This document shows, in pieces, positions 3,287 through 21,097 of a stretch of 21,097 nucleotides of DNA (position 1 is the first letter of the stretch; the number at the start of each line of letters is the position of its first letter). The position numbers and the translations under genes were made by a program. The stretch comes from Candidatus Wolframiiraptor gerlachensis (GTDB taxonomy: Archaea > Thermoproteota > Nitrososphaeria_A > Caldarchaeales > Wolframiiraptoraceae), in assembly GCA_021323375.2 (NCBI GenBank), contig JAJPCT020000011.1:1-21097 (forward strand). The letters are read 5' to 3'. The notes under the pieces were generated by a model. The model had not been told where the DNA came from. It worked only from the letters and a program-made list of their open reading frames with translations, and made no database searches.

Positions 3287-4597
3287 ATGTCGGGGGAGCA
3301 GAAAACTGCGGAGCAAAAAGTAAGCAGGAGGCGTTTCATAGGTTATATCGCCGCAGCTGCTGTTGTTGCTGGAGCCGCTGCAGCTGGAGCAACATACTAT
3401 CTTGCTAGACCACCTACACCGACCGCGACCGCCCCTCCAGCCGGTTATGTTAAGAAGTGGCCGACACCTAAGCTCGACTTGAAGAAAGATATCCCATATG
3501 TATGCGCAGCTTTCATAGGTCTAGCTAACCCATGGGATGAATTAAACAGAATTGGAGCAGAGTGGTATTGTAAGGATGTACTTGGATGGAATTTAGAGAT
3601 AGTCTGGCCTGAGGCAGATGTTAAGAGGGAAAATGATGGTGTTGAGATGGCGATTAAGAAGGGCGTGGATGGAATAGTCGCCTGCCCACTTGACAGCCTA
3701 GCAAACGCAAAGATAGGGGAGATGGCAATGAATGCCGATATACCGCTAGTAGAATTCGGAATAGATATGTATCACAGCTGGCCTTTAGCGATGTATCAGC
3801 GAGACGATTATGATAGTGGAAAATTCTGCGCACTCTTTGCCGTGGATGAACTCGTAAGAATGTATGGCAAGGCAGAGGGCAAGGCATTACATATTCACGG
3901 CTATAGGGGATCTATGTCCGACTTCCTCCGAAGCGGAGGATGGATTGACGTGATAAGCCAGTATCCAGATATTCAAAATATTGAGGTTGCAAACTCTTGG
4001 GTTGCCACGGCGGAGTATCCGAAGATCAAGGCAGCCATGGCGGCCAACCCGGATCTGCGAGTAGCTTACGAGGAGATGGGAGGATTCCATGAGTGCGTGG
4101 TAACGGGAGCGAGAGAACTCGGCTGGCCGGAGAAGAAGATACAGGATCTAATCTGCGTGAACTGTGACTTGTTCCCAGTGAATATTATCGGATATGAGGA
4201 GGGTACACAGGATTATTGCCACATGATGCCAACTGGTCCTGATATGCTGACAGAGTGCTTTGAGCAGCTTAGGGAGTTCTGGAAGAAGGGTGCCCCGGAT
4301 TGCATACCGCCAATAGGCGAACCGTTCACGTTTGAGAAATACCTGCCTGAAATGCAGTGGGATGCTGAAGTTGATGGATTCAAGCCGCTTCAGTTCCTGA
4401 AAGACCCCGTCTGGGGCATTGCTGGATCAAAGACGACAAACAAGCAGTATGGCTACTGTCCAGTTAAACCAGCGCCATGTGGCGGGCCCGAGACATCGTG
4501 GGTCGTTATACCCGATAGAATCATCACTAGAGAGGACTACAAGGAACTCTGCATCTACTGGAACTGGCCAATCTGGGGGCTAAAGGCCTGGAAGTAA
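3287..4597 (+). CDS. Sugar ABC transporter substrate-binding protein (Peripla_BP type I) with Tat signal
   Basis: SRRRFIG twin-arginine motif, hydrophobic stretch and Pro/Thr linker, followed by an RbsB-like core (NPW, GVDGIVACP.D, DDY.SG, R..G). Start placed at ATG 3287. Confidence 0.85.
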   Translation: MSGEQKTAEQKVSRRRFIGYIAAAAVVAGAAAAGATYYLARPPTPTATAPPAGYVKKWPTPKLDLKKDIPYVCAAFIGLANPWDELNRIGAEWYCKDVLGWNLEIVWPEADVKRENDGVEMAIKKGVDGIVACPLDSLANAKIGEMAMNADIPLVEFGIDMYHSWPLAMYQRDDYDSGKFCALFAVDELVRMYGKAEGKALHIHGYRGSMSDFLRSGGWIDVISQYPDIQNIEVANSWVATAEYPKIKAAMAANPDLRVAYEEMGGFHECVVTGARELGWPEKKIQDLICVNCDLFPVNIIGYEEGTQDYCHMMPTGPDMLTECFEQLREFWKKGAPDCIPPIGEPFTFEKYLPEMQWDAEVDGFKPLQFLKDPVWGIAGSKTTNKQYGYCPVKPAPCGGPETSWVVIPDRIITREDYKELCIYWNWPIWGLKAWK

Positions 4598-15400: not shown

Positions 15401-16549
15401 TTGAGGTTCGAGTGCTTCGCGACTACGATCATGGGGCTTGAGGATGTCGCGGCGCGGGAGTGTAGGGAGATTATCGGGGTGGAGGCGAGACCCGATATCG
15501 GAAAGATATTTTTCGAGGCGGATGAGGGCGATATCATAAGGCTGAACCTCGCCTCTAGGACTATCCACAGGGTCTTCGTGCTCCTATCCCGATCCAAGGC
15601 GGAGGTTTTAGACGATGTTTACAGGGCTGCAAGAAGCGTTGATTACACGGAGTTCATCGGAGCTGATCAGGCATTCGCTGTTAAGGGCGAGAGGCACTCG
15701 AAGGACAAGCCATTCACGAGCATGGATATGGCCGCCGCCGTCGGCAGGGCTGTAATAGAGAGCTTTAGAGAGAGGACGGGCGTGAGGCTCAGGGTTAACC
15801 TAGATAATCCCGATGTCCGGCTCTACTGCCTCATCAGGGACTCGGAGCTCCTGATAGGCCTAGACACGACCGGGAAATCGCTCCATAGGAGATATTACAG
15901 GGTTTATCATCATAGAGCCGCGCTTCAGCCGAGTATAGCCGCGGGCATGTTAATGCTCTCGGGGTGGAGGAGGGAAGAGGCTCTCCTAGACCCCATGTGC
16001 GGCGGCGGGACAATACCGATAGAGGCGGCTCTAATGGCGCTCAAGATACCTCCGGGTGCACGAAGGCTCAGCGACCTAGCTCTAAACAAGCTCAAGTTCA
16101 TAGATGGGGAGAGGATAAGGGAGATCGCGGAGGAGCTTGAGGCCGAGGCTGATCTCGGATTCAGGCCTAGAATCATCGGCTCCGATGCATCGCCGAAGAG
16201 TATTAGGGGCGCGGTCGCGAATGCCGAGGCAGCAGGCGTCCTGAACGCCGTCAAGCTCGTGGTCGGAGATGTGCTGAGGCTTGGCGAGTGGCTCGATGAA
16301 AGGCCCAGTCATATCATTATGAACCCGCCTTACGGGATAAGGATGGGGGTAAGAAAGATAGAGGAGTTTTATCAGAAAGTCTGCACATCAATACGCAGTG
16401 CAGCTCCTGATGCAAGGCTGACCGCGATAGTCTCGAAGCCCGTGATCTTTGGGAGGGCTCTTGAGTCGGCTGGATATGTTATCGAGTCGAGGAGGCAGAT
16501 AATATATGGGAGGCTTAACGCCTTTATAGTTATGGCCACACCCGGGTGA
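15401..16549 (+). CDS. trm14: THUMP-domain tRNA guanine-N2 methyltransferase (Trm14-like)
   Basis: TT..GLE, THUMP region (V.LDNPD), G.DTTG.SLHRR.YR, DPMCGGGTI.IEAA, NPPYG.R. Confidence 0.8.
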   Translation: MRFECFATTIMGLEDVAARECREIIGVEARPDIGKIFFEADEGDIIRLNLASRTIHRVFVLLSRSKAEVLDDVYRAARSVDYTEFIGADQAFAVKGERHSKDKPFTSMDMAAAVGRAVIESFRERTGVRLRVNLDNPDVRLYCLIRDSELLIGLDTTGKSLHRRYYRVYHHRAALQPSIAAGMLMLSGWRREEALLDPMCGGGTIPIEAALMALKIPPGARRLSDLALNKLKFIDGERIREIAEELEAEADLGFRPRIIGSDASPKSIRGAVANAEAAGVLNAVKLVVGDVLRLGEWLDERPSHIIMNPPYGIRMGVRKIEEFYQKVCTSIRSAAPDARLTAIVSKPVIFGRALESAGYVIESRRQIIYGRLNAFIVMATPG

Positions 16550-16626: not shown

Positions 16627-17334
16627 ATGGACGCCTTCGAGGAGGATGTGAGGACCGCTCAAAGGCTTCTAGAGGAGAGGTATGGCCCAAGCATCAGGCG
16701 GAGGATCGGCGAGATCGCGGAGAGGCTGATATCGCTTCACAGGGAGAATAGAATAAAGATAAACCACTCGATAATGGAGTATGTCCTTGCAGCGCATCTC
16801 GCGAGCAAGGGCTATAGGGTTGAGCTCGAGTATCCCCTCGCCAACGACCTAGTAGCGGACGTGATGGCCTGGAGAGATGGAAAGAGCCTGATAATCGAGG
16901 TTGAGACCGGGTTCACATCGCCCGAGAATGCTCTCGACCCTCAAGCATATCTCACCGCGAGGGCTATTAGCAAGATCGCGAGATATAGCCCCCATGCCGA
17001 TAGATTCAGCCTGGCGACACCAGCCCACAACATACTCCAGATACCAAGAACCCTCCTGAAGCCGGCAAGCGCTAGGAGGCCCGCCGAGATACAGCTTCTC
17101 AAAAGCCTCTGCGACCAATACTATAGGACGCCCGAGATCGCAGTCGAGAAGCTCTCGAAGATGAGGCTACACGCGATCTACGTGATAAACGTCGACCTCT
17201 TAGAGGTTGTTAGGCTTAGCCCGAGAAAGTACCTAGAGAAATATGGCGACCTCTGCCCAAGCCTTCAACAGATAAGAAAATATGTTGAGGCTGGCCCTCG
17301 GAGGCGCGTGGCTTGTGAGCATCCCACCGCGTGA
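16627..17334 (+). CDS. Hypothetical protein with a PD-(D/E)XK restriction-endonuclease-like motif
   Basis: H...E helix, G(Y)RVELEY, ADV, IIEVETG pattern (E...D...E-x-E). A TATA-like TTAATTATT lies ~30 nt upstream. The fold call rests on motif pattern only. Confidence 0.6.
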   Translation: MDAFEEDVRTAQRLLEERYGPSIRRRIGEIAERLISLHRENRIKINHSIMEYVLAAHLASKGYRVELEYPLANDLVADVMAWRDGKSLIIEVETGFTSPENALDPQAYLTARAISKIARYSPHADRFSLATPAHNILQIPRTLLKPASARRPAEIQLLKSLCDQYYRTPEIAVEKLSKMRLHAIYVINVDLLEVVRLSPRKYLEKYGDLCPSLQQIRKYVEAGPRRRVACEHPTA

Positions 17335-17505
17335 GCTTTTCCCCGAGGTGGGACGCCCCTTCAGCCACACCGCACACGTAGCCTTCGGGGGCCGCTTACG
17401 CGGCGCTCACGGGCCGGCATGCGGTGCTCCATGAGGACGGCTTTCCGGGGCACCCCCCGGCAGCCCTCCTCTATGGGCGCGCGCTCCTGTTCCGGCCAGC
17501 CTCGC
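17287..17505 (-). ncRNA. Candidate structured ncRNA of unknown family (~220 nt, four-way junction with loop-loop pseudoknots)
   Basis: Perfect 10-bp terminal inverted repeat (17287-17296/17494-17503) and three internal arms. G-U pairs and a GUAA tetraloop favour the minus strand. BRE/TATA-like CGAAAGCCTTATT at 17540-17528. Confidence 0.72.
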
Positions 17506-17601
17506 TAGATTGTATTCATTGGGGGCGAATAAGGCTTTCGCAAAACCCACACGCCCAGTCATACTCAGGGATTTAAACGGTATTTATCCAAGTGGAAGCT
17601 T

Positions 17602-19509
17602 CTACTCGCGAGCAAGCCTTCTAGCAAGATTCTCTACAAATTTCTCATAAACCTCGGCGAATGTCCTGTATGTTCTTCTCCCGAGCCTGTATATTGTTAT
17701 GAGGAAGAGTATGGCGGCTGCTGCCATCACTATCTTTGAGACGAGACCCCCAATCACGGGTATAGATGCGAAGCTCATCGAATAGCACCAAGCTATTAAG
17801 CCGAGAGCTGCGTATAGAAGGTCGATAAAGATCCTTCTAAGGATCTCCTTGGTTGCTCCAATCCTACTTACAAGCCTTACCGCGATAAGGTCTAAAAGCC
17901 TCTTCATCGAAGAGATTATCATATAGCCGAAGCCGATAACGAGAGCGGCCTCCAAGATTAATATGATGTGCTCTGCGAGCAGGAGCTCTCCATTAATCCC
18001 AAGAACCGGGAAATCGAAGAAGATCGGGCCAATCAACCTGAGGATTAACAGGGCCAGGATCAGCTTCAAGATTCTTCCAATGAGCTTGGAGATCACGGCC
18101 TTTACAGGGTCTATTGGATGCAATATCCTGGGCCAGGGCTCTCTCCCCCCAATAACAACGGGGCGCGACCCGATAATCTGGTGACGGGCGGCTAAGATCA
18201 GGCCAGCCGTATAGTATGCTAGGGGGATAAAAGCTATGTAAAGCAACGCGATGAGAGGCATCCCGAGAATAGCGGCCAAGAATACCATGAAGAGCCTAAC
18301 ATCACGCGTAACCGGAATAAACCTGATCTGTGATATATCGATTCCGCTTCCTTGGAGGAGATGGGTTAGGTAGCTCACTAGGATTATGTTTGCTGATGCG
18401 AGAATTGAGATGATGCCGATGATCTGGTCGAGGGGCCATAGCGCGATAATAAGCCCCATTATCACGGAGAGATCGGCCAGCCTATCTAGAAAAGAGTCCA
18501 GCAATGCCCCGAAGCTCGATACCCTCCTAAAGAGCCTTGCAAGCTCGCCATCCACGCCATCAATTATTGATGATGCTTGGATCAGCAGGCCGCCCATGAG
18601 AAAGCTTTGGAGGGCGAGAAAAATGGCTCCGCAAACACAAATCAGGAATGAGATTATGGATATGATGTTTGGATTGATATAGAGCCTCCGCCTATAGAGT
18701 GATATCGAGATCCTTGATGAGATCTGCCTATTGAGATATCGTGATACAAGCCCATCACTCGGTCTCGTAAGCTCCCTTCCTAATATCCGCCAGTAAAGCT
18801 TCCTCGCCTTCTCAAGATCCTTGGGCGTATCCACATCCTTCCAAAGCAGCCCAGTAACATCAACAAAACCCACTTGATTCTCGGCGGCAGCGAGGTTCAA
18901 CGCATCCTTTATCGCCGCCTTCGAGCCCCTTAACCTGATAGCCTCCTCGATATACTTCCTAGCATGGGGATTACAATAGATGATCCCGGTATCGATCCCG
19001 TAGAGGGGCTTAAGCGACTTATCAGCCTCGACCACTCTCCCATTCAATAGCATCAGCTTCAAGCCCTCCTCAGCCTCGATAACCGAGGGCTCCCTATCCA
19101 GACATAGCATGAACGCTTCCCGCGCCTTAACCGCCTCACTCAAGACCCTTTTCAACAGCTCATACTCGAAGATATGATCTGACATTAAGACCAGAAAGCT
19201 CCCATCAACCCTGCCCACAGCCGCCCAGAGGCTATAAAGATTCTCAAAGGAATCAAGATCCAACTCTACAAGCTCAACATCGTTAGGGAGCCTCGCTCGA
19301 ATAGAATGCGAGAATTCACGCCTAGTGACCACGATGATCCTCCTTAGGCCGGCTCGCCTAACCCTCTCAAGGATAAAATCGAGAATACTTACCCCAGGCT
19401 CGAGCTCCATCAAGCACTTGGGGGAGGCCTCGGAAAAGGGCTTAAGCCTACTCCCAATACCAGCGGCCAGAATTATCACTGAAACATCCTCCGAATGAGG
19501 TAAAGACAT
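17602..19509 (-). CDS. Bifunctional IPCT/DIPPS-like enzyme (NTP transferase + CDP-alcohol phosphotransferase) with an additional C-terminal membrane domain
   Basis: ILAAG.GSRL...PKCL, MSDH, DTG, W.DVDT..DL; then DG.VSRYLNR.IS, PN.IS and DGVDGELAR...GA.LDS.LDR.AD. Start placed at ATG 19509, ~30 nt from minus-strand TTATAT; ATG 19521 is an alternative. Confidence 0.85.
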   Translation of the reverse strand: MSLPHSEDVSVIILAAGIGSRLKPFSEASPKCLMELEPGVSILDFILERVRRAGLRRIIVVTRREFSHSIRARLPNDVELVELDLDSFENLYSLWAAVGRVDGSFLVLMSDHIFEYELLKRVLSEAVKAREAFMLCLDREPSVIEAEEGLKLMLLNGRVVEADKSLKPLYGIDTGIIYCNPHARKYIEEAIRLRGSKAAIKDALNLAAAENQVGFVDVTGLLWKDVDTPKDLEKARKLYWRILGRELTRPSDGLVSRYLNRQISSRISISLYRRRLYINPNIISIISFLICVCGAIFLALQSFLMGGLLIQASSIIDGVDGELARLFRRVSSFGALLDSFLDRLADLSVIMGLIIALWPLDQIIGIISILASANIILVSYLTHLLQGSGIDISQIRFIPVTRDVRLFMVFLAAILGMPLIALLYIAFIPLAYYTAGLILAARHQIIGSRPVVIGGREPWPRILHPIDPVKAVISKLIGRILKLILALLILRLIGPIFFDFPVLGINGELLLAEHIILILEAALVIGFGYMIISSMKRLLDLIAVRLVSRIGATKEILRRIFIDLLYAALGLIAWCYSMSFASIPVIGGLVSKIVMAAAAILFLITIYRLGRRTYRTFAEVYEKFVENLARRLARE

Positions 19510-19574
19510 GCTCCAAACCATCAGTCCAAGGATGAGATATAAGTCTTGGGAGCGCTACCGCTCGAGAAGTAACT

Positions 19575-19788: not shown

Positions 19789-21097
<1,309 letters not shown>

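Follow-up and report, generated by a model that had tools for sequence, protein, structure and literature searches.

The DNA analysed here, referred to as the window (21,097 nucleotides [nt] of contig JAJPCT020000011.1, assembly GCA_021323375.2, of the hot-spring archaeon Candidatus Wolframiiraptor gerlachensis), carries on its minus strand a 217-nt locus (17503..17287, 72% G+C) that we interpret, with a probability of roughly 0.8, as a gene dedicated to a non-coding RNA that is circular, highly structured and made via bulge-helix-bulge (BHB) processing. The locus belongs to a stand-alone, promoter-driven and covarying RNA family that lacks an Rfam entry and has a BHB motif at its ends, and a circular junction at the predicted sites is present in RNA of close relatives. 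RNA positions are counted from 1 (17503) to 217 (17287); g and f denote genera and families, g1 being the genus of the window, f1 its Aigarchaeota family and G000 its genome. Coordinates of all features are collected in Table 1.

The junction was observed in assembled metatranscriptome contigs of relatives that are ~95% identical, from two runs (X19 and X20) of one study. A 222-nt X19 contig runs from 17358 to 17298, continues with one extra letter and then runs from 17488 to 17330, i.e. its joint jumps back by 191 nt, a single letter separating 17298 from 17488. The same junction is seen in two loose ends of X20, and the ends of the X19 contig overlap by ~30 nt, as assemblers give for circles. 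Position 207 accounts for the extra letter; most relatives have A at this position, the window G. Joint and extra letter together imply that position 207 is joined to position 16, yielding a 192-nt circle. The joined sites are exactly the predicted cuts, after the second base of each bulge. Moreover, no RNA contig covers 17490-17506, including the 5' strand of the outer helix, and the X19 contig joins across this region; except for that joint, the missing contig cover over 17490-17650 is a hint only.

The sites themselves follow from the BHB motif that is recognised by the archaeal splicing endonuclease, as defined in PMC4090602 and PMC7714728 (these and the other papers cited by PMC number are used for the accessible parts of their text). 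In the precursor, two 3-nt bulges on opposite strands flank a 4-base-pair (bp) central helix (C10-G205, G11-C204, G12-C203 and A13-U202), as expected of a BHB. All four pairs form in 33/40 sequences and three of the four in the other 7, which belong to genus g5; pair 13-202 occurs as A-U, G-C, C-G and U-A. Bulge 2 starts with A in 40/40 sequences, has A, G or C as its second base, and may end in any base (A 20, U 10, G 8, C 2). The 9-bp outer helix is complete in 28/40 sequences, with one mismatch in 9, and shows compensatory changes in 7/9 pairs. On the other side, where the definition in PMC7714728 asks for at least two Watson-Crick pairs in the intron-side as well as the exon-side helix, G17-C201 is found in 28/30 sequences, and G18-C200 pairs in the window, not in all genera. 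The genome encodes two tRNA_int_endo (EndA) paralogues (94 and 78.8 bits; on C17 and C8) and RtcB (581 bits). In tRNA, the textbook intron position is 37/38. Combined with the location of the first two anticodon bases in the BHB central helix (PMC4090602), this places the canonical cut after the second bulge base. The two-subunit type of endonuclease has been linked to a broad substrate range (PMC4090602).

One strand of the motif appears to serve two helices in turn. Positions 13, 19 and 202 covary as triplets across 40 sequences (A/A/U, G/G/C, C/U/G and U/U/A); position 202 thus covaries with 13, its partner in the BHB, and with 19, its partner in helix P2, indicating that both mutually exclusive pairings are selected. 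Ligation joins CUCC-G205-A206-R207 to A16-GGAG, by which P2 becomes a hairpin with the tetraloop G205-A206-R207-A16. This post-ligation tetraloop reads GAAA in 36/40 sequences, GAGA in 2/40 (window included) and GACA in 2/40. When folded as a circle, the RNA retains P2 together with all three arms, at -120.5 kcal/mol (z -7.6). Predicted circle sizes are 182-194 nt in f1, 151-181 nt in f2 and ~200 nt in an outlier genome, G101. We considered a coding circle and dropped it, as circle lengths (192 nt here, 151-194 nt elsewhere) are not kept in multiples of three.

The fold as such was first proposed from the sequence-only reading, a hand-folded annotation of this DNA, and most of that proposal has held. 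A scripted check of the listed helices (P1, P2, arms A, B and C and both loop-loop helices) found zero non-pairs in the window, and RNAfold returned the proposed four-way junction as the minimum free energy structure at -147 kcal/mol (z -7.75; 0/200 shuffles equal). The plus strand folds less well (z -5.26) and scores 21.9 bits with the covariance model, versus 219.5 bits for the minus strand. Terminal stem P1 had been drawn with ten pairs, nine of which stand; the tenth (17494/17296) is paired in just 12/30 and 3/19 sequences, and position 208 is unpaired with position 10 in 18/30. More importantly, while the pairs of P1 and the internal loop next to it were drawn correctly, the BHB processing site they constitute had been missed. 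The homologues with compensatory changes that had been named beforehand as a check on function were found. In 30 family sequences, 92.9% of cells are paired, whereas column shuffles give 70.5% and slid partners 36-42%, and 58/68 pairs change on both sides. For 19 sequences drawn from both families plus the outlier, 91.4% of cells are paired (shuffles 62.4%) and 59/68 pairs change on both sides. All these values come from alignments fitted to the covariance model, which favours that model; in one genus, however, 17 compensatory pairs were evident from a plain MAFFT alignment.

Compensatory changes extend to all three arms. In arm A, 12/12 lower pairs and 3/6 tip pairs change on both sides, the remaining tip pairs are near-invariant, and the tip is retained in family f2 and in G101. 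Arm B shows such changes in 10/10 outer and 4/5 inner pairs, arm C in 4/5 pairs of its 5-bp stem and 11/12 pairs of its 12-bp stem. Apart from the BHB region and the arm A tip, few unpaired nucleotides are invariant.

For the two loop-loop helices between arms B and C, we compared duplexes of each internal-loop segment with its own arm C loop to duplexes with the arm C loop from another genus. Native helix 1 duplexes reached -10.5, -12.9, -7.6 and -8.6 kcal/mol, versus -2.4 to -6.0 kcal/mol across genera, and thus helix 1 is supported in 4/4 genera. For helix 2, the native duplex was best in g1, g4 and g3 (3/4 genera); in g5, 3 bp are left and the native duplex was not best. Helix 1 partners differ wholly between genera (CGUGAGC/GCUCACG, ACGGGC/GCCCGU, CACAAC/GUUGUG), and helix 2 partners include CCCCGA/UCGGGG, AACCAA/UUGGUU and CCUCGA/UCGAGG, the last found inside the genus of the window. 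Genus g9 has CCAG/CUGG and GCCGC/GCGGC (the latter ~-12 kcal/mol), G101, as read by eye, GCGUGG/CCACGC and UCCG/CGGA; in g6, the pseudoknot is possible, yet competes with a local stem. Because of the swap test and the wholly different partner sequences between genera, we consider the double pseudoknot real on comparative grounds.

The RNA has its own transcription signals, in line with the stand-alone RNA of complex tertiary fold that had been envisaged. The BRE/TATA-like (B recognition element/TATA box) sequence CGAAAGCCTTATTC, already noticed upstream of P1 in the sequence-only reading, keeps both its sequence and its spacing in all 11 relatives from the genus whose upstream flank is readable; one further relative (G003, locus L014) reads N for ~50 upstream bases. 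TATA-like boxes with equal spacing occur in g4, g5, g3, g6, g14 and g9 and in G101. At the other end, the T-rich tract is conserved in 13/13 aligned g1 sequences, and T-runs follow the RNA in g4, g5, g3, g6 and G101, with a weak one in g9. Homology sets in with the first base of the terminal stem and extends ~15 nt beyond its end, and the genes upstream and downstream of the RNA differ between genera. On this evidence, the conserved promoter element drives a ~217-nt precursor that ends at the T-rich tract. As for a riboswitch or leader, no regulated same-strand gene lies downstream, as had been stated; the T-rich stop is followed by the 3' end of a convergent gene.

Known RNA families do not account for the locus. 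With Rfam 15 at the gathering score, the sole match in the whole window is 16S rRNA (19789-21097, on the other strand). An Infernal search of 17100-17700 with 4227 families, likewise proposed in advance as a check on novelty, was empty even at E<=10, and six homologue loci from g4, g5, g3, g6, g14 and g9 gave no Rfam match at E<=1. The proposal of a possibly undescribed class therefore stands, as does the exclusion of RNase P RNA, signal recognition particle (SRP) RNA and riboswitches, as no Rfam match lies at the locus and the first two have genes of their own elsewhere in the genome. Archaeal RNase P RNA is encoded at C16:5336-5638 (141.1 bits), SRP RNA at C25:74183-74498 (91.1 bits, RF01857 model positions 1-317, full length), and 5S rRNA also lies elsewhere (94.7 bits). 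The SRP RNA score is below the gathering score of 96.5, and standard annotation would miss C25:74183-74498. The type T RNase P model RF02357 was rejected, with 13.3 bits only, elsewhere in the genome and none at the locus. A tRNA or rRNA intron was discarded as well, with 0 tRNA genes found in the window by ARAGORN and a promoter ~25 nt before the stem, and so was an omegaRNA or guide of the upstream gene, whose 639-aa (amino acid) open reading frame encodes no nuclease but a nucleotidyl-transferase fused to a CDP-alcohol phosphatidyltransferase. By-eye inspection, the only kind applied, revealed no convincing conserved K-turn, loop E or C/D boxes. In the literature searched, which did not extend to supplementary lists of circular RNAs, we found no description of such an RNA.

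At the DNA level, the RNA was sought in the window's genome together with 60 relatives, and 13/61 genomes gave matches. Apart from the window's own genome, 11/13 members of the genus matched (66-97% identity); one 19-nt match from beyond the genus was spurious. With a covariance model built from one genus (R1), full-length matches were obtained in 27/35 family genomes, distributed, window's genome excluded, as 12/13 in g1, 3/3 in g4, 6/8 in g5, 5/7 in g3 and 0/3 in g2. A second model, from four genera (R2), found the RNA under strict filters in 32/76 class genomes (29/34 others in f1, 2/19 in f2, 0/4 in f3 and 0/18 in f4). With the filters off, a shorter version of 180-202 nt emerged in 5/8 loci of f2, a sister family; genus g9, likewise in f2, has a 176-179-nt version in 3/5 genomes, and a follow-up search gave no RNA match in f3 (3 genomes) and f4 (2 genomes). 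The outlier G101, which lies outside the class, has a 227-nt version with all hallmarks. Outside the class, R2 under strict filters matched 0/132 genomes (from a sample of 151), 1/41 in a smaller sample and 1/14 in the order of G101 (G101 itself); as these wider searches used strict filters, absence outside the class rests on weak evidence. In the two families, the RNA is a single-copy feature whose distribution respects the limits of genera.

Two copies deserve separate mention. The same assembly contains a second, decayed copy of the whole locus (G000 contig C26:63587-64465; loci L020 and L049), in which the RNA is 90% identical, has deletions in P2, the arm A tip and the arm B hairpin, and scores 145 bits (R1) and 118.6 bits (R2). 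Its PD-(D/E)XK gene, the convergent neighbour described below, has several stop codons, and the upstream transferase gene is reduced to fragments; this copy is a duplicate that has become a pseudogene or, alternatively, reflects poor assembly of a strain variant in the metagenome-assembled genome (MAG). In another genome of the genus, G004 (74-76% complete), locus L042 (G004:C65:2488-2704) holds a divergent RNA copy (76.8 bits with R1) that has a 12-nt loop instead of the conserved G-rich arm A tip and is directly followed by the next gene. No PD-(D/E)XK gene was found in G004.

We suggest the following route to the circle. The ends of the ~217-nt precursor pair as a BHB, as seen from sequence, covariation and the RNA contigs of relatives, with a 9-bp outer helix, the 4-bp CGGA/UCCG helix and two 3-nt bulges. 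The tRNA-splicing endonuclease, probably formed with the two EndA paralogues, would cut both bulges, and RtcB would seal the cut RNA into a circle. After cutting, strand UCC(G) would change partner, moving from the BHB helix to P2, and ligation itself would create the GAAA or GAGA tetraloop that caps P2. The resulting circle would be a four-way junction of P2 and arms A, B and C, with the 18-nt loop of arm C pairing both strands of the arm B internal loop (7 + 6 bp) and thereby locking B to C. The circle without P1 is most likely the mature RNA and, we infer, the functional form. As to what it does, our tentative guess is an exonuclease-proof, heat-stable scaffold for at least one protein, with the arm A tip as the likeliest contact.

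Several points weigh against this interpretation. The junction is known only from contigs, of two runs of one study and of relatives, without a DNA-run control. Short X20 contigs have a word depth of ~3,471-4,292, a weak hint of abundance, contig depth being a poor measure of it; the sole contig on the neighbouring gene has a depth of 43 and differs at 24/177 positions, hence comes from a more distant organism. In the precursor, the nearest-neighbour model favours the P2 conformer over the BHB by 8 kcal/mol (-147.0 versus -138.9 at 37 °C), so that the endonuclease would need to trap a conformation that is minor or forms during transcription. In g5, the central helix has an A.G mismatch, and the intron-side helix is short with a variable second pair, which makes the motif partly relaxed, perhaps an hBH form. 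Covariation, furthermore, may reflect intramolecular or intermolecular loop-loop pairing, which it cannot separate, and the scaffold role and the protein partner are guesses.

The conformer energies would favour a linear RNA that functions with P1 intact, the circle being a minor by-product or decay intermediate, and so would the conservation of P1 with compensatory changes and the existence in Sulfolobus of circular forms of otherwise linear RNAs (PMC3326292). However, the P1 5' strand is without an RNA contig and one contig joins across it, the P1 sequence varies freely and its tenth pair is not kept, whereas the BHB helix and bulges are near-invariant, and the GNRA tetraloop that arises as the ligation product in 38/40 sequences looks selected; we therefore regard a functional linear form as decidedly improbable. 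Somewhat easier to entertain, although still improbable, is an orphan or domesticated archaeal BHB intron, selfish or relic, that has its own transcription unit and yields a circle without a cellular role. Archaeal rRNA and tRNA introns do leave BHB sites as stable circles (PMC3326292, PMC4090602), and the patchy occurrence outside the class (1/14 genomes in the order of G101) as well as the decayed second copy in the same genome would suit such an element. It would not be expected, however, to be single-copy and to track genus boundaries over two families, to keep a dedicated promoter, or to be under strong purifying selection on the whole fold, pseudoknots included; its exons would measure just ~15 and ~10 nt plus a trailer, with no tRNA in the window, and there is no homing endonuclease inside the RNA. 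A self-cleaving or otherwise catalytic RNA might be suspected from the compact junction, the double pseudoknot, the few free nucleotides and the strong conservation of the fold, but no Rfam ribozyme family matches, the observed ends fit protein-made BHB cuts rather than self-cleavage, and few unpaired nucleotides are invariant outside the BHB region and the arm A tip, making catalysis a very improbable explanation. Finally, a circularly permuted copy of a known RNA could escape linear models, and the Thermoproteus SRP RNA gene takes the same processing route (PMC4731332). This idea is hardly credible here, given full-length RNase P, SRP and 5S RNAs elsewhere in the genome (141, 91.1 and 94.7 bits) and no local Infernal match to the 4227 families.

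More has to be said about the convergent PD-(D/E)XK gene, with or on which the RNA might act, be it as a subunit, guide or inhibitor, or as a cis-antisense of the mRNA 3' end. Gene and RNA are adjacent and convergent in 27/28 loci from four genera and also in g6 and g14 of f2, their 3' ends overlap by 48 nt in the window, and within f1 they are present or absent together, except in G004. Yet neighbouring genes tend to be lost together in any case, and g3 shows no overlap of the coding regions. In g9, RNA and gene are on separate contigs in 3/3 genomes having both, and G101 has no PD-(D/E)XK gene within 1.5 kb of the RNA. The protein family is, moreover, far wider than the RNA: it occurs in 48/76 class genomes, with relatives in 561/598 candidate stretches, including Nitrosotalea, Nitrosopumilus and Bathyarchaeia. 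When R2 was run on 80 kept PD-(D/E)XK loci, 14 gave a match on the expected strand, all from Aigarchaeota, and 65/80 had no RNA match beside the gene; 12 folded downstream gaps showed no fold signal (z no better than -3.3), and simple motif scans of 26 such loci were negative outside Aigarchaeota. A role centred on this gene is thus rather unlikely. A functional tie is possible but not required, because the RNA is unlinked in g9 and G101 and no RNA lies beside the protein in other lineages.

Table 1. Features of the circular RNA locus and of its surroundings in the window
Feature	Coordinates	Strand	Remarks
BRE/TATA-like element CGAAAGCCTTATTC	17527..17540	-	~24-37 nt upstream of first base of terminal stem
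Outer (exon-side) BHB helix, 5' strand	17495..17503 (positions 1-9)	-	pairs with 17287-17295
Central BHB helix, 5' strand CGGA	17491..17494 (positions 10-13)	-	pairs with UCCG 17299-17302 (202-205)
Bulge 1	17488..17490 (positions 14-16)	-	A-N-A in 40/40; predicted 5' cut 17489/17488
P2, 5' strand	17479..17487 (positions 17-25)	-	pairs with 17300-17307
Arm A	17429..17476	-	long hairpin; tip, a G-rich stem with GNNG loop, is most sequence-conserved part
Arm B	17368..17426	-	10-bp stem, internal loop, inner hairpin with GNRA or UUCG tetraloop
Arm C	17309..17367	-	5-bp stem, internal loop, 12-bp stem, 18-nt loop
Pseudoknot helix 1	17405..17411 x 17330-17336	-	arm B internal loop CGUGAGC with arm C loop, 7 bp
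Pseudoknot helix 2	17385..17390 x 17341-17346	-	arm B internal loop CCCCGA with arm C loop, 6 bp
Bulge 2	17296..17298 (positions 206-208)	-	A-R-N; predicted 3' cut 17297/17296
Outer BHB helix, 3' strand	17287..17295 (positions 209-217)	-	predicted to be removed from mature RNA, like 5' strand
Predicted mature circular RNA	17297..17488 (positions 16-207)	-	192 nt; from RNA contigs and circular fold
T-rich tract	17271..17282	-	directly after stem; inside 3' end of convergent gene; likely archaeal terminator
235-aa protein gene	16627..17334	+	PD-(D/E)XK nuclease fold predicted; last 48 nt overlap RNA gene
Upstream same-strand gene	17602-19521	-	nucleotidyl-transferase + CDP-alcohol phosphatidyltransferase fusion in window's genus; other genes elsewhere
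THUMP/UPF0020 methyltransferase gene	15401-16549	+	flanking gene
16S rRNA gene	19789, runs off window end (21097)	+	from Rfam

Neither Pfam nor NCBIfam has a match for the 235-aa product of the convergent gene, and a sequence search of the PDB was equally negative. Its AlphaFold2 model (pLDDT 93.1) is confident except for the last 9 residues; the C-terminal tail that overlaps the RNA gene is disordered and differs between genera. Structural searches assigned residues 47-199 to the PD-(D/E)XK nuclease fold, recovering XisH (2inb; Foldseek, E 4.2e-4) and 2okf (VIA, Z 8.2, residues 47-199), with AF1548, NucS and SfsA also among the Foldseek and VIA matches. Invariant residues of the family include E68, D78, E91, E93, T94 and G95, and an N-terminal three-helix bundle is present. 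The family is widespread in the TACK archaea (Aigarchaeota, ammonia-oxidising Nitrososphaeria, Bathyarchaeia, Brockarchaeota and Thermoprotei) and is annotated as hypothetical everywhere. In a Nitrososphaerales MAG, the gap after the PD-(D/E)XK gene (L159:2143-2366, plus strand) gave a weak R2 match of 23.2 bits, on the same strand as the gene and thus the wrong one, with a gap z of -3.3; it may be chance or an unrelated RNA. A regular-expression match in two Calditenuis loci was rejected as purine-rich coding sequence. The transferase fusion encoded upstream of the RNA has an architecture that we take to be that of the di-myo-inositol-phosphate synthesis enzymes of hyperthermophiles.

Among known systems, raiA, OLE, ROOL and GOLLD are large structured non-coding RNAs of bacteria or phages that are linear and came from comparative genomics. 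The RNA described here shares with them the size class, a dense covarying tertiary structure, pseudoknots and stand-alone genes, whereas it is archaeal and circular, and none of the four matches it in Rfam. It likewise resembles RNase P RNA, including the minimal type T of Thermoproteaceae (RF00373, RF02357), in its ~200 nt, terminal stem, junction and long-range pseudoknot, but the locus is without a match to that family and the genome has a normal archaeal RNase P RNA on C16. As for processing, it agrees with archaeal tRNA and rRNA introns and pre-rRNA circles in having an hBHB with a 4-bp helix and two 3-nt bulges (PMC4090602, PMC7714728, PMC12558985, PMC3326292), and also in the cuts after the second bulge base, the circular products and the use of EndA and a ligase. 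Those circles are by-products or intermediates, while here the circle is the conserved, covarying product, and the flanks consist of the processing stem only, without a tRNA or rRNA (ARAGORN). The nearest parallel is in Thermoproteus, where permuted SRP RNA genes yield circular SRP RNA (PMC4731332): both are stand-alone genes for a non-coding RNA that is cut at a BHB and ligated into a circle. In Thermoproteus, however, the product is a known universal RNA from a permuted gene, whereas there is no rearranged SRP RNA here, ordinary SRP RNA is encoded elsewhere, and the circle of the window matches no described family. Archaeal circles described so far comprise tRNA and rRNA circles, one intron in a 5' untranslated region, small circular sRNAs and circular omegaRNAs (PMC3326292, PMC7714728, PMC12558985), and in the parts of this literature that were compared none resembles the RNA of the window. 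Except for the permuted Thermoproteus SRP RNA, the BHB-made archaeal circles found described in these sources are splicing by-products or processing intermediates.

In our reading, the RNA class is new while the pathway that makes it is known, and EndA and RtcB gain a further class of substrate. The gene looks as if a circle were its intended product, with a fold that is complete only after ligation. The proposed hand-over, in which one strand is part of the BHB before the cut and of P2 after it, is testable, and the four covarying triplets back both states. The RNA is compact (about 150-195 nt), rich in covariation and from hyperthermophiles, making it a good structure target and a natural framework on which to design stable circular RNAs; as it is present in hot-spring metatranscriptome assemblies, the question of its function is approachable. 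In a broader perspective, we give even odds to the idea that Aigarchaeota, and perhaps other TACK archaea, possess a so far unseen class of obligately circular, pseudoknot-locked RNA for which the tRNA-splicing machinery is the sole, dedicated route. If so, the circle would be the RNA core of a ribonucleoprotein or a catalyst, and the loop-loop helices might link molecules.

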